A stretch of DNA of 64,000 nucleotides from Escherichia coli (lineage in GTDB: Bacteria; Pseudomonadota; Gammaproteobacteria; Enterobacterales; Enterobacteriaceae), in the NCBI RefSeq assembly GCF_003334355.1, contig NZ_QOWP01000021.1. One strand, given 5' to 3'. This document shows positions 27,011 through 39,565 of this stretch, one piece after another. Made by a program: the position numbers and the translations under genes. Below the pieces are notes generated by a model, which saw only the letters and a list, made by a program, of their open reading frames with translations, made no database searches and was not told the origin of the DNA. Numbering within the stretch: position 1 is the stretch's first letter; each line of letters starts with the position of its first letter.

Positions 27011-27209
27011 CATGTTACCAGGAGCCGCGGCTCCTTTGCGTATCCTTTTATGTCTCCTCACCGTCTGGTCGGTGTTTTGCTGAGACTTCTAACTTCCTGT
27101 TTTTGTTGGTGTTGTCCTTACACCGTCCAATCATGATTGGCTGGCGGAGTCTGAATTTGTATGTTATATCTATGTTTTAATTGGTTATTTATTTAAGTTG
27201 TTTTTGTTT

Positions 27210-27231
27210 GTATACCTAAGCGTATACCAAT
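27210..27231. repeat. Distal copy of 22-bp motif GTATACCTAAGCGTATACCAAT (candidate integrase arm-type site / island end)
   Basis: Matches 39433-39454 (GTATACCTAAACGTATACCAAT) at 21 of 22 positions, same orientation, about 12.2 kb apart. Confidence 0.4.
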
Positions 27232-27316
27232 AGCGGGGTGCAATACTTATTGAACTTTAAAAAAATCACGCTAAATAGGTCTTTCTATATTCAAAAAAAC
27301 TCTTTTTTCAATAAAT

Positions 27317-27394
27317 TGTTCACACTGTTCACTTTGGATTTTTACCATTCAAAATCAAGGAAATAGAAGTTAACTGTACGGTGAAGAGTGAACA
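27317..27394. repeat. TGTTCAC/GTGAACA heptamer iterons downstream of the alpha primase gene (candidate crr/ori-like sites)
   Basis: TGTTCAC at 27317-27323 and 27326-27332, GTGAACA at 27388-27394, near-copy GTGAAGA at 27381-27387. Confidence 0.35.
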
Positions 27395-27413
27395 GATAAC
27401 TCTACATTCTTGT

Positions 27414-27443
27414 GCCAGCAAAAATAAAACCCGGCATCAGCCG
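27414..27443 (-). terminator. Rho-independent terminator downstream of the alpha primase operon
   Basis: On the minus strand aacccggc-tgat-gccgggtt hairpin followed by ttatttttg, just after the primase stop at 27456. Confidence 0.5.
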
Positions 27444-27455
27444 GGTTAGTTGAAA

Positions 27456-29840
27456 TTATTTGATTGTTGGCTCATCGCACTTGGGTAGCCAGTCTGCATT
27501 ACTTTCCTCTTTTAAAGTGAGGTTAGTCTGCATTCCCTGATTAGTTCGCCGTTTCTCATAATGTAGCCCGTACTCCTTCAGCATGACTGGCAACCCTTTG
27601 CCAAACATCGTAAGACTCAGGGTGTTTTTATATCCATTAGCCTCCATGTATACGAGGTAGGCATGGTAAAGGTAGGTACGTGGCTGGCGTGGGACAATAT
27701 TGGCGTTCCCCATAAACATGCCGTTGGTGTCAGGTAATGCCTCAAGATAGCCACAAAAATCAAATGCTGGATCAGCATCACGCTTGATGGTGAGAGCCTC
27801 ATCAGAATTCTGCTGCGACTGAAGCAATGTTCTGGCGCTCATCGGATCGCTGAAACGCTGCATGAGCTGGCGAACAATCACAGCCAGTTCTCGTGCAATT
27901 TTATCTTTCAGCTGCGGATCGCGTTCTTCCGGTGCTATCTGCTCAGGAAAATGCAGAATAACTCTCCTGCGGGACACACCACCACTGCGATCAGTGAAGC
28001 GCATAGGATTATTATTTACGGCCAGGATAACCGCCGGAATATGTGTTGAATAAGCATTCTGATATTTGGGGTCCACCGATACCGCATCGCCACCAGTTAT
28101 AGCCTTAAGCCCGGCGCCGTCGCCGCTCCACTTCTCCTGATCAGGCAGGCGAATAAGAGAAAAACCTATCAGAGCCGCACGTTCTCGCGGGGACTCCAGC
28201 GTTTCAATGGTCGCAGAGGTGGCGTTATCCTCTCCAGCAAGCATGGTCGCAATTTCAGCCAGAATACTTTTGCCACTTCCACCAGGGCCAGTCACTTCCA
28301 GAAAGAGCTGCCAGTCATAGCGATTCGCCAGCACCATAAATAACGCCGCAAGAATAATGTCGCGTTTTTCTGGCTTGTGTCCGGCAGCCCGGTCCAGCCA
28401 GCGCCAGAATGCCGGGGCATGAGTTTCAAGCGTTTCCCCCTCTACCGGTGGCGTGAAATCGACTTCACACAGGGTACGCAGCCAGTTCTCTTTACAGTGC
28501 GGACTAAACAGCCCTGTTCGCGTATCGAGGACGCCATTACGAAAACCGATCAGATGACGTGCCGGATTTTGCTGCTGCGGAACAATTAACTTTAATGTTT
28601 CCACCAGTGAAGCAATTTTTCCTGAGGAAAACGGTGCACCGAGGCGCTGGAAAAGGGCTGCGACATCTCGGGCAAAATCTGACTGAGAAATCACTTTCCA
28701 TGCTCCAGACTCGTAGCGGGATAAAAGCTGCCCGTTCGGATCAACCGCCAGTGCATCCCTGTAATGCTCCCGAACCCTCTGAGCTTTTTCGCTGACACTC
28801 ATCGCTGTGAATTCTGCTTCACTCATTGTGTCGAAAGGACTGGCGTTATGTGGCTTCAAAGCCTCAAGAATTGCCTTCCGGGTGGATTCCTCTCCGTATT
28901 GGGTAAGCGCATCATTCCAGTCACCAAAAACCGGTGGCAGCACAATGTCACACTGACACGCTTTTGCAGCAGTTTCAGCCCTGTTCTGGCCTGAACCATT
29001 CAGATCGCGGTCCGCTGCAATAATTAACTGATATCCCGGATACTTGTTATGGGCAACGCTGGCCAGAGAAAGAAAGTTGACCGACGAAAATGCCACCATG
29101 ACGGCTTCTCCTGTCAGATGACGAATGGTAAGCGCCGTGGCGTAACCTTCCGCAATCCATATCCTTCTTACAGAACTCCCGCCCCCTTCTATCAGATGAT
29201 AGGCCTCCTTAACCTGACCTCCTTTAAGAAAACACTTGCTACCATTGCCACTGATAAGCTGAATATTCACCAGTTCCCCGTCAGCGTTATAGAGCGGGAC
29301 GATCAAATCACCGGGGCGGAACATCACCCCACCGGTTTTATGACCTGAAGTCAGCTCATGGCAAATATGCTCCGGGAAACCTTTATGTGTAAGATAAGTA
29401 TTTCCGGCAGATTCACGCGAGGCTTGCAGTAGTCGCGCGGCAAGTGCTGCCGCCGCCTGTTTCCCGCCATCTGTATCTGCGGTTGACGTCCAGACTCCAG
29501 AAGAGGCTGAAGACAGACTATGTGTCAGTCCATGTATCCTGTCTGCTGCTTCACTGATATCCACATTCAGTACCTTGCTGACAAGCGCTAAACCGTCCCC
29601 AGCCCCGCACTGGTTGCAGAACCATGTTCCACGTCCTTCCAGATCGTCGAAGCGAAAACGATCTTTACCGGCGCAGACCGGACAAGGCTGATGGCGATTT
29701 TTCAGTATGTTCATACCCAGCGCTGGCAAAATCCGCGCCCAGTGACCGCGGGCAGCCTTCACGGCCTGACTGACTTTCATTCCTGACATGATGCAGTTCT
29801 CCCTCAGTGTAAAACCGGCTTTATAATGTGACGGACGCAT
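27456..29840 (-). CDS. P4 alpha-like bifunctional primase/helicase (zinc-binding primase + P-loop NTPase)
   Basis: 794-aa ORF with [14 protein letters not shown]...CNQCG zinc-binding motif and Walker [11 protein letters not shown]; true start may be an internal Met (MSGMKVSQ). Confidence 0.85.
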
Positions 29841-38152: not shown

Positions 38153-38181
38153 GAACTATATCTCCATGTATAACAAGTTAA

Positions 38182-39381
38182 CTAATATTGATTGCGCTCG
38201 TACACTTTTTGGCCCCACCAATTCATAAGTCCTATTCGTTGCTCAAGGTAAGTTGAACGATTATATGCTCTGCGCACTTCATTTTTATCACTATGTGCAA
38301 GAGCAGCCTCAATTACATCTGCATTAAAACCCGCTTCATTTAATGCGGTGCTGGCAATTGAACGCAATCCATGAGCAACCAATCTACCACCAAATCCAAT
38401 CCTTTTTAAAGCAGCATTTGCCGTCTGGCTATTCATTGGTTGCTTTGGGTCATTCCGACTCGGGAAAACATGTTCACGATGGGCACTGATTAGCTTCATC
38501 ACATCAAGAATCTCTAATGCCTGAGGAGATAGAGGGACTATGTGTTCCCGCTTAGCCTTCATTCGTTCAGCTGGGATAGTCCAGAGCTTTGCATCGAGAT
38601 CGAGCTCAGCCCACCTAGCACCGGAAGCCTCAGAAGGACGAACTAGAGTCAGGAGTTGCCACTCAATGAGGCAGCGAGTCGGAACAGACAAATTTGACAT
38701 GACGAGAGAACGCATCAGCATAGGCAATTCTTCTGGGCGCAACGTAGGCATATTTTGTTTTTTTGGCTTCTCAAAGGCCATTCCAATGCCTGATGCTGGA
38801 TTGGCATCAATAAGACCAGTATTTACGGCATAAATCATTATCTCGTTAACACGCTGCACCAACCGGCGCACCGTCTCCAGCGCCCCACGAGCTTTGATCG
38901 GTTCAAGGGCTTCAACCAGTGTTCGGGCTTTGATTTGCTGGACAGGGATCTCCCCGATGGTGGGGAATACGTCTTTTTCCAGTGAACGCCATATATCTTT
39001 AGCGTAATCATGGGTAACGCTTTTGCTTTTGAGCTGGAACCAGTTAGCGGCGACCGTCGAAAAAATACTGTCCAGAGCGATTTGCTGCTGTTCCTCTGCA
39101 ACTTCAGCTTGAATTTGCGGGTCGATTCCGTTGGCTAATAGGGCAAGGTAATCTGCTCTTAACCCTCGGGCATCAGCAAGAGAAAGGGCAGGAAAAGCAC
39201 CAAGTCCCATCATAGTCCGCTGTTTTGTTGCTGGGCGTTGATAGCGAAAGCGCCAGAGTTTCTTGCCGCTAGTTTTCACTATCAGGAAAAGCCCATCGCC
39301 ATCATGCAGCGTTAGATCCTTCTCTAACGCTTTCGCGCGCAGAACTTCGGTGTTGGTCAGGGGGCGTGTTGTCCGTGCCAC
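38182..39381 (-). CDS. intA: P4-type tyrosine integrase (IntA/SlpA-like), GTG start
   Basis: 399-aa ORF ...HDGDGLFLIVKTSGKKLWRFRYQRP... with C-terminal catalytic HGLRSIASTAL and RRAYNRSTY (Tyr); starts about 185 bp from the ssrA 3' end. Confidence 0.9.
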   Translation of the reverse strand: MARTTRPLTNTEVLRAKALEKDLTLHDGDGLFLIVKTSGKKLWRFRYQRPATKQRTMMGLGAFPALSLADARGLRADYLALLANGIDPQIQAEVAEEQQQIALDSIFSTVAANWFQLKSKSVTHDYAKDIWRSLEKDVFPTIGEIPVQQIKARTLVEALEPIKARGALETVRRLVQRVNEIMIYAVNTGLIDANPASGIGMAFEKPKKQNMPTLRPEELPMLMRSLVMSNLSVPTRCLIEWQLLTLVRPSEASGARWAELDLDAKLWTIPAERMKAKREHIVPLSPQALEILDVMKLISAHREHVFPSRNDPKQPMNSQTANAALKRIGFGGRLVAHGLRSIASTALNEAGFNADVIEAALAHSDKNEVRRAYNRSTYLEQRIGLMNWWGQKVYERNQY

Positions 39382-39400
39382 TGTGGCCGCTCCTTCATGA

Positions 39401-39456
39401 ATTGGTATACGCTTTTAGGTATACATCCTACCGTATACCTAAACGTATACCAATAA
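39401..39456. promoter_or_regulatory. 56-bp palindrome in the int upstream region (candidate Int arm-type/operator sites)
   Basis: ATTGGTATACGCTTTTAGGTATAC ... GTATACCTAAACGTATACCAAT: the two 22-24 nt arms are near-perfect reverse complements; one arm recurs at 27210-27231. Confidence 0.45.
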
Positions 39457-39493
39457 TCATCGGATTTAGCCGGATGTTCTCGGACAACGACAA

Positions 39494-39530
39494 ACACAAA
39501 AAAGCCCGCAGGGCTTGTGCCATGCGGGCT
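39494..39530 (-). terminator. Rho-independent terminator downstream of ssrA
   Basis: On the minus strand gcccgca...tgcgggc hairpin followed by cttttttgt, about 35 nt past the tmRNA CCA end. Confidence 0.6.
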
Positions 39531-39565
39531 TTCTGTACTTCACCGGACGTATCCGGATCATTATT

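Follow-up and report, generated by a model that had tools for sequence, protein, structure and literature searches.

We analysed a 64,000-nt stretch of Escherichia coli DNA (contig NZ_QOWP01000021.1 of assembly GCF_003334355.1; this whole stretch is called the window below), in which a preliminary description had placed a P4-like satellite prophage of about 12.4 kb at the tmRNA gene ssrA. The base composition of the 12.4 kb block to the left of ssrA differs from that of its surroundings (33-38% G+C between 34000 and 38500), and both flanks are core chromosome, with ypjA on the distal side and ssrA, followed by smpB, ratA and recN, on the other. Each of the proposed components, i.e. cargo, a cos-like motif, an Ogr/Delta gene, psu-like and sid-like genes, a divergent control region, alpA and an alpha-type primase/helicase gene, could be located (Table 1). 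The gene and RNA identities are direct observations, as are the ends of the element, its att architecture, the place of its cargo slot and its occurrence in other genomes; the primase, sid-like and psu-like products match P4-family proteins in BLAST, PHROG and Pfam, as had been anticipated. The integrase gene, with its GTG start, begins 184 nt from the 3' end of the tmRNA, matching the roughly 185 bp estimated before. The order of the late genes has to be corrected: it is cos-delta-psu-sid and not cos-psu-delta-sid. Based on these P4-family proteins, the core-chromosome flanks and the comparison with empty sites described below, we conclude with high confidence that a complete P4-like satellite sits at the extreme 3' end of ssrA, put there by its own tyrosine integrase of the P4 type, and that the slot between cos and int holds its cargo, namely type I Hachiman genes and a small HEPN-like gene.

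Table 1. Features of the satellite and its junctions (positions in the window)
Feature	Position	Strand	Evidence and remarks
Distal junction (attR in this orientation)	27127..27155		Flank CCAATCATGATT, eroded core GG/CTGGCGG, putative phage-encoded ssrA 3'-end mimic AGTCTGAA; aligned with CRE1493 and the K-12 distal junction
Far-arm integrase-binding repeats, two direct GTATACC(T/A)A	27210..27232	+	23-nt repeat shared with 39433-39455; layout as annotated P4 attP arm repeats
crr-like region for replication in cis, with a single copy of the 120-bp repeat of P4	27294..27413		TGTTCAC type-1 iterons at 27317, 27326 (+) and 27388 (-)
Terminator-like hairpin just past alpha	27428..27447	-	Equivalent of P4 t-alpha; P4 annotated terminator at same relative place
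Alpha primase-helicase, 777 aa	27456..29789	-	74% identical to P4 alpha over 773 aa; phrog_2249 1e-223; Pfam Zn_Ribbon_Prim, Toprim_3, D5_N, Pox_D5 (PF03288, 3.5e-18)
cnr-like gene (P4 ORF106 / DUF5375), 107-aa ORF	29804..30127	-	69% identical to P4 ORF106; phrog_5991
75-aa protein	30124..30351	-	phrog_10110; no P4 match
Ash / 'Icd-like' ORF, 183 aa	30348..30899	-	Pfam Phage_ASH (PF10554) 1.9e-29; 68% identical to old P4 'cI ORF137'; overlaps Rfam RNA matches
CI/C4-type antisense immunity RNA	30594..30681	-	Rfam RF01695, 84.6 bits (gathering score 45)
Leader RNA elements upstream of CI: isrK-like hairpins and terminator, a1/b1-like C4 target	30750..30840	-	RF01394, 76.7 bits; RF03163, 45.9 bits, just below gathering score 46.7
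AlpA/Vis-type regulator, excision factor	30899..31159	-	64% identical to P4 ORF88 (Vis); Pfam Phage_AlpA (PF05930) 3.7e-18
Divergent control region, 0.9 kb, AT-rich	31160..32072		GC 0.35-0.41
Sid-like capsid-size determination protein	32073..32825	+	phrog_6165 2e-94 (P4 Sid in same family, 6e-116); BLASTP to P4 Sid 23% over 212 aa, E 2e-6
Psu-like protein	32822..33376	+	Pfam Psu (PF07455) 1.8e-33; 28% identical to P4 Psu, E 1e-12; phrog_6366
Single-domain Delta/Ogr zinc-finger late activator	33378..33650	+	Pfam Ogr_Delta (PF04606) 9e-15; matches both halves of P4 Delta, 27-34% identity
cos-like site	33848..33878	+	Inferred 19-nt end GGCGGGCGGGGCAGCGCAC at 33860-33878; last conserved backbone before cargo
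HamA, DUF1837 nuclease effector of Hachiman	34076..35017	+	PADLOC HamA1 PDLC00163 1.7e-135, full length
HamB, Ski2-like SF2 helicase sensor of Hachiman	35019..37601	+	PADLOC HamB1 PDLC00186 1135 bits, full length; helicase relatives among solved structures
HEPN-like protein, 152 aa, third cargo gene	37694..38152	-	
P4-type tyrosine integrase, arm-binding N-terminal domain	38182..39381	-	NCBIfam PRK09692 587 bits; Pfam Arm-DNA-bind_3, Phage_int_M, Phage_integrase (PF00589, 5e-30); GTG start
Int-side arm repeats, four GTATACC(T/A)A	39404..39453		Inverted at 39404 and 39418; direct at 39433 and 39445
Terminator-like hairpin supplied by the element	39502..39516	-	50 nt downstream of ssrA 3' end
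Proximal core TTGGTGG	39565..39571		Overlaps CCA end of ssrA; inferred crossover region; empty site compared with proximal/distal junctions in window, L005, L006, K-12
tmRNA (ssrA)	39566-39928	-	ARAGORN; Rfam 295.8 bits; gene complete

All 7/7 markers by which P4-like satellites have been defined (PMC8628076) are present and in order, namely those for integrase, alpha, AlpA, Sid, Psu, Delta and epsilon/Ash. The Psu match covers model positions 1-181 of 182. For Sid, the full-length phrog_6165 match of a gene directly upstream of psu stands in as a proxy for the authors' custom profile. By this seven-component definition the element classifies as a Type A P4-like satellite of the Enterobacterales (Moura de Sousa and Rocha, PMC8628076), with which it also shares the usual marker order, the cnr and 75-aa genes, a variable defence cargo between int and the psu/delta/cos side, and the E. 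coli tmRNA hotspot. In fact, we see no substantive difference from these satellites; the element is one member with one particular cargo, and apparently an ordinary and intact one. Both cnr and the 75-aa protein are reported to be common in P4-like elements, the 75-aa family lying between epsilon and alpha in 61% of them and being absent from P4 (PMC8628076).

Including both core copies the element measures about 12.43 kb, close to the 11,624 bp of satellite phage P4 (NC_001609) as had been noted. With P4 it has in common alpha (the same 777 aa in both), cnr, Vis/AlpA, the CI/C4 RNA with its upstream leader, sid, psu, delta, int, crr, ori iterons and, where the non-essential region borders the backbone, a cos-like site. 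DNA similarity to P4 is about 70% over alpha, cnr and the immunity region and starts in one copy of the crr repeat: in blastn the window aligns from 27292/27294 to P4 4288-4332 and to P4 4471 onward, i.e. to the two crr repeats. About eight degenerate, ori-like GTGAAYA iterons, the complement of the P4 ori type-1 repeat TGTTCACC, are found at 31720-31920. Unlike P4, which resides at leuX, the element occupies ssrA, with different core and arm repeat sequences; its delta and psu genes are swapped, its Delta has one domain where P4 has a tandem of two, and it contains one crr repeat instead of two. It also differs from P4 in lacking epsilon and ORF151, in its extra 75-aa gene, in a diverged cos 19-mer, in Sid and Psu proteins that are just 23-28% identical, and in its cargo (Hachiman and the HEPN-like gene; gop/beta/cII in P4). 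Its integrase is 36% identical to P4 Int and 61% identical to IntA of K-12.

Ends of the element and other occupants of ssrA

In many complete E. coli genomes ypjA directly adjoins ssrA, and the homology of these genomes to the ypjA flank of the window ends at about 27144. The empty site of strain CRE1493 has the junction CCAATCATGATT/GGTGGAGCTGGCGGGAGTTGAA, the second part of which is the ssrA 3' end. In the window, the flank CCAATCATGATT (27127-27138) is followed by GGCTGGCGGAGTCTGAATTTG, and the ssrA-proximal junction is ...GGATCATTATT/TGGTGGAGCTGGCGGGAGTTGAA. By this comparison the element extends from about 27140 to 39571, and the predicted integration at the ssrA 3' end is shown directly. 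The interval proposed before, 27200-39565, was thus right in its overall placement but fell about 60 bp short at the distal end.

The distal junction of a sibling satellite (HD12480) and that of the K-12 prophage CP4-57 both read ATTGGTGG-GCTGGCGG-AGTCTGAA. As judged from the empty site and the proximal and distal junctions side by side, the simplest reading is that strands are exchanged within TTGGTGG, the last bases of ssrA including its CCA; given such an exchange, GCTGGCGGAGTCTGAA after the core would be a phage-borne imitation of the acceptor/T-arm of ssrA. The proximal core inside ssrA is intact in all occupants compared. The length of the distal core varies: it is GGTGGGCTGGCGG in K-12 CP4-57 and HD12480, GGGCTGGCGG in LAU-OXA (3-nt loss) and GGCTGGCGG in the window and strain 1-62 (window 27136-27147; loci L005 737-749, L006 737-752 and L003 3337-3352). 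The search for attL/attR core repeats that had been recommended therefore yields a core at both junctions, of which the distal one is eroded and 4 nt shorter.

Arm-type 7-mers cluster solely at the two ends of the element, and their arrangement and distances from the core resemble the annotated attP of P4, in which the core is likewise flanked by two far-side arm repeats and by two direct plus inverted repeats on the int side. Like P4, the element has integrated site-specifically at the 3' terminus of a gene of the tRNA type, with core repeats and arm-type sites at its borders. The sole long direct repeat between the ends, the 23-nt GTATACCTAA(G/A)CGTATACCAATA at 27210-27232 and 39433-39455, was considered as att core and rejected, since the empty site puts the junctions about 70-110 nt further out and the extra inverted copies fit arm-type Int sites. 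A hairpin similar to the one that the element supplies downstream of ssrA is present at the same place in CP4-57; integration displaces the native downstream sequence of ssrA, and the element brings its own.

K-12 had been said to carry a different and larger occupant at this locus, and this is the case: CP4-57 (intA...ypjF) spans about 22.0 kb between the same two junctions, as measured in one K-12-type genome, compared to 12.4 kb here. If the element were no satellite in its own right but a variant or remnant of CP4-57, the two would be expected to share the insertion point at the ssrA 3' end, the phage-side core GCTGGCGGAGTCTGAAT, related integrases and an AlpA-family regulator (the Pfam name of this family is 'Prophage CP4-57 regulatory protein'), and they do share all of these. 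However, the genes at both ends differ, those of CP4-57 being intA and yfjH next to ssrA and ypjF, yfjZ, ypjJ, lfgB and lfgA at the ypjA end. DNA homology to K-12 is limited to the junctions, reaching only about 40 bp into the element at its distal end, and as arm-type repeats K-12 has TTGGGCCTA-like sequences where the element has GTATACC. With both end gene sets and the length being different, descent as a CP4-57 variant is highly improbable, and by sequence the two are different elements with a related integrase and the same landing site.

The preliminary description had also raised the case of a truncated piece of a larger prophage. For such a piece, or for the end of a tandem array reaching beyond the interval, there is a precedent in strain 1-62 and several IMG/VR contigs, where the same satellite stands in tandem with a P2/186-like prophage at ssrA. 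In strain 1-62 this is a complete prophage of about 35 kb between ssrA and the satellite (L025 4171-40001). In the window, however, the int-side arm is joined immediately to a complete ssrA, with smpB, ratA and recN next, and the ypjA flank agrees with empty-site genomes all the way to the distal junction. This reading is refuted for the window and we give it virtually no weight. The prophage of strain 1-62 contains P2-family capsid, GpO scaffold, terminase, portal, ogr, CI, CII and int genes and a cargo that includes a TIR-domain gene; the satellite behind it is preceded by a 48-nt partial copy of the ssrA 3' end.

Immunity region, late genes and cos

In P4 the C4 model (RF01695) matches at 8420-8507 with 74.9 bits, somewhat less than in the element, and the isrK-like leader at 8615-8692, in the same relative place inside the old 'cI ORF137'; in the window the isrK-like match spans 30750-30827. 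Because the same C4 and isrK pair lies inside 'cI ORF137' of P4, the region 30348-30899 is the P4 CI-RNA immunity region, and an RNA-based immunity of the CI type is indicated for the element. The three coupled small ORFs noted before are indeed present (29804-30899), but the first of them, the 183-aa ORF, is largely an RNA footprint; a genuine small protein may be confined to its C-terminal part. PF10554 serves as the 'epsilon' marker in the definition of P4-like satellites, yet the matching ORF overlies the C4/CI RNA both in the element and in P4 (8168-8584). The same ORF is called 'Icd-like' by PGAP, and the true epsilon of P4 (ORF95) is a different gene. The PF10554 protein family may thus largely reflect conservation of the RNA.

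Just upstream of the sid-like gene, two TGT-N12-ACA dyads are located at 31983-32000 and 32021-32038 (+), with their centres 38 nt apart. In P4 late promoters, Delta sites are centred at -55 and -18, which the spacing of the dyads resembles; the local pair is no more than suggestive. An enrichment of TGT-N12-ACA across the window was rejected, with 15 occurrences found and 14 expected in 64 kb, two of them in the control region.

The cos-like site is syntenic with P4 cos. Its positions 33848-33870 agree with the P4 sequence across the cos nick at 21/24 positions, with a score of 31 compared to 15.3 +/- 2.2 (maximum 27) in 500 shuffles. The cos flank of the P2/186-like prophage in strain 1-62 matches the satellite cos better than P4 does (GGTGCATGAAAACCA...AAGCGGGCAGGCG.GGCGGGG, score 45). 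Because of this resemblance, a working cos served by a helper of the type found in strain 1-62 is plausible but unproven. Sensitive blastn ('distant' mode) of the cos region against phages gave no match, and a scan of IMG/VR for the cos-like 19-mer in search of a helper turned up nothing beyond four copies of this satellite and three unrelated chance matches.

Cargo slot and distribution

The cargo genes (34076-38152) lie in a slot between cos and int at 33,883-38,211. The first two, hamA and hamB, are adjacent and 1 nt apart, and by their full-length family matches they form a Hachiman system of type I. In Hachiman, the helicase sensor frees the nuclease upon DNA damage, which leads to an abortive-infection response (PMC12278908). 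The pair resembles the type I Hachiman of E. coli ECOR31 (PMC12278908) in its adjacent DUF1837 HamA and SF2 helicase HamB. It belongs, however, to a different subtype: HamB matches ECOR31 HamB (8vx9_B) over about 100 residues only (E 5e-12), and HamA has no sequence match among solved structures. The solved structure nearest to HamB by sequence is 9wh1_B (853 aa, E 4e-58), deposited as 'DNA polymerase theta (Helicase domain only)'.

The third cargo gene encodes a 152-aa HEPN-like protein with no match in Pfam or PADLOC. Its family comprises about 700 members with an invariant R-x-R-N-x-L-F-H-G-G-K motif, and homologues are found near integrases or resolvases in unrelated elements without Hachiman. 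A role as accessory gene of Hachiman was rejected on the ground of these unrelated contexts without HamAB.

In two sibling satellites at ssrA the backbone is shared as far as 33879-33882, where cos ends, and from 38212 onward, a position just within the 3' end of int. The slot between these points holds a nuclease-helicase pair of another kind in one sibling, and DUF262, a HEPN-like nuclease and a cytosine methyltransferase in the other. The cos 19-mer of the element differs from that of these siblings at two positions.

The whole element is present in 18 of 5,426 complete E. coli genomes with 99.4-99.8% identity, and about 380 genomes share the int-ssrA junction. Dog, turkey, pig farm, human and soil sources are represented among the copies, whose identity is at least 99.4%. 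A megablast search of the element against 50,697 phage records returned tmRNA fragments and trivial matches only; none of these phages holds the element. In the window the autotransporter frame of ypjA is unbroken (22274-26977 (+), a 1567-aa ORF), whereas it is a split pseudogene in the satellite carriers 789 and 1-62; the window therefore comes from a different background. At 19293-19368 (+) ARAGORN predicts a tRNA-Met (CAT anticodon). The corresponding gene of strain 789 is a tRNA-Ile in RefSeq, which we take to be of the lysidine-modified ileY type.

Proposed working and significance

Regulation, helper dependence, packaging, present-day mobility and defence activity we infer by analogy with P4 and with known Hachiman systems. 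In the lysogen, the CI/C4-type RNA would silence the leftward replication operon (alpA, the 75-aa gene, cnr and alpha). With an active P2/186-like helper, Ogr/Delta-type activators would turn on the sid-psu-delta operon from a promoter with the TGT-N12-ACA dyads. The element would be excised by Int plus AlpA/Vis and replicated by alpha from the ori iterons and crr; Sid would then shrink the helper capsid, and the helper terminase would cut the satellite cos and package the 12.4 kb genome. The resident element would protect its host when HamB senses aberrant DNA and frees the HamA nuclease, with the response described for Hachiman (PMC12278908).

Some observations weigh against a satellite that is complete in this sense. 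BLAST against P4 and PHROG found no homologue of P4 epsilon (ORF95, phrog_10016) or of ORF151 in the element; helper derepression, if any, would therefore take another route. The canonical 19-nt cos end of P2/P4 has 0 matches with up to 3 mismatches, the cos-like 19-mer agreeing with that of P4 at 13/19 positions (ungapped), and no helper prophage is found within the 64-kb window. Furthermore, the distal core of the window and of strain 1-62 (ATTGG/CTGGCGG) is 4 nt shorter than ATTGGTGGGCTGGCGG in HD12480 and K-12 CP4-57. Because this loss removes part of the inferred 7-bp overlap, leaving TTGGTGG unmatched at the two ends, excision of this copy may be poor.

These findings bear on the possibility that the element is a P4-derived island that has become fixed, i.e. 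of the same ancestry but no longer excised or packaged and kept as a chromosomal defence island with Hachiman and the HEPN-like gene. Besides the eroded core, which is matched by the 3-nt loss in LAU-OXA, the missing epsilon homologue and a cos 19-mer that departs from both P2/P4 and the siblings, insertion sequence (IS) elements in some copies (H15-H18) would fit such an island. On the other hand, the backbone genes are all full length with zero frameshifts, alpha has kept the length of its P4 counterpart, and the immunity RNA, crr, ori iterons and arm sites are intact. Nearly identical copies from such diverse sources also speak against a fixed island, and the position of the crossover is itself inferred: if strands were exchanged within GCTGGCGG, which both ends retain intact, the deletion would be of less consequence. 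We thus regard a fixed island as possible but on the whole unlikely, and prefer the complete satellite. More speculatively, and with low confidence, the HEPN-like gene could be an uncharacterised single-gene defence or toxin module carried at the integrase-proximal ends of unrelated mobile elements, here beside Hachiman, and, separately, the 4-nt loss in the distal core could mark a satellite that is turning into a fixed host defence island.

The kind of element found here has been described before: P4-like satellites are known to occupy the tmRNA hotspot (PMC10121019), Hachiman is known from P4-like satellites (bioRxiv 10.64898/2026.02.27.708500), and the defence hotspot near cos is published as well. 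The identification is in this respect correct and ordinary, a well-delimited case of known things whose significance beyond correct annotation is small. For annotation, it means that the 'Icd-like / Ash' ORF is mostly a footprint of the immunity RNA and that the 23-nt repeat close to either end should be labelled an arm-type site, not the att core. For E. coli, the tmRNA gene appears as a shared landing site, with CP4-57 in K-12, a P4-like satellite here, and satellite and P2/186-like prophage in tandem in a sibling strain. Taken together, the element provides a clean example of how P4-like satellites exchange defence cargo at one slot beside cos, and of Hachiman being spread by them.

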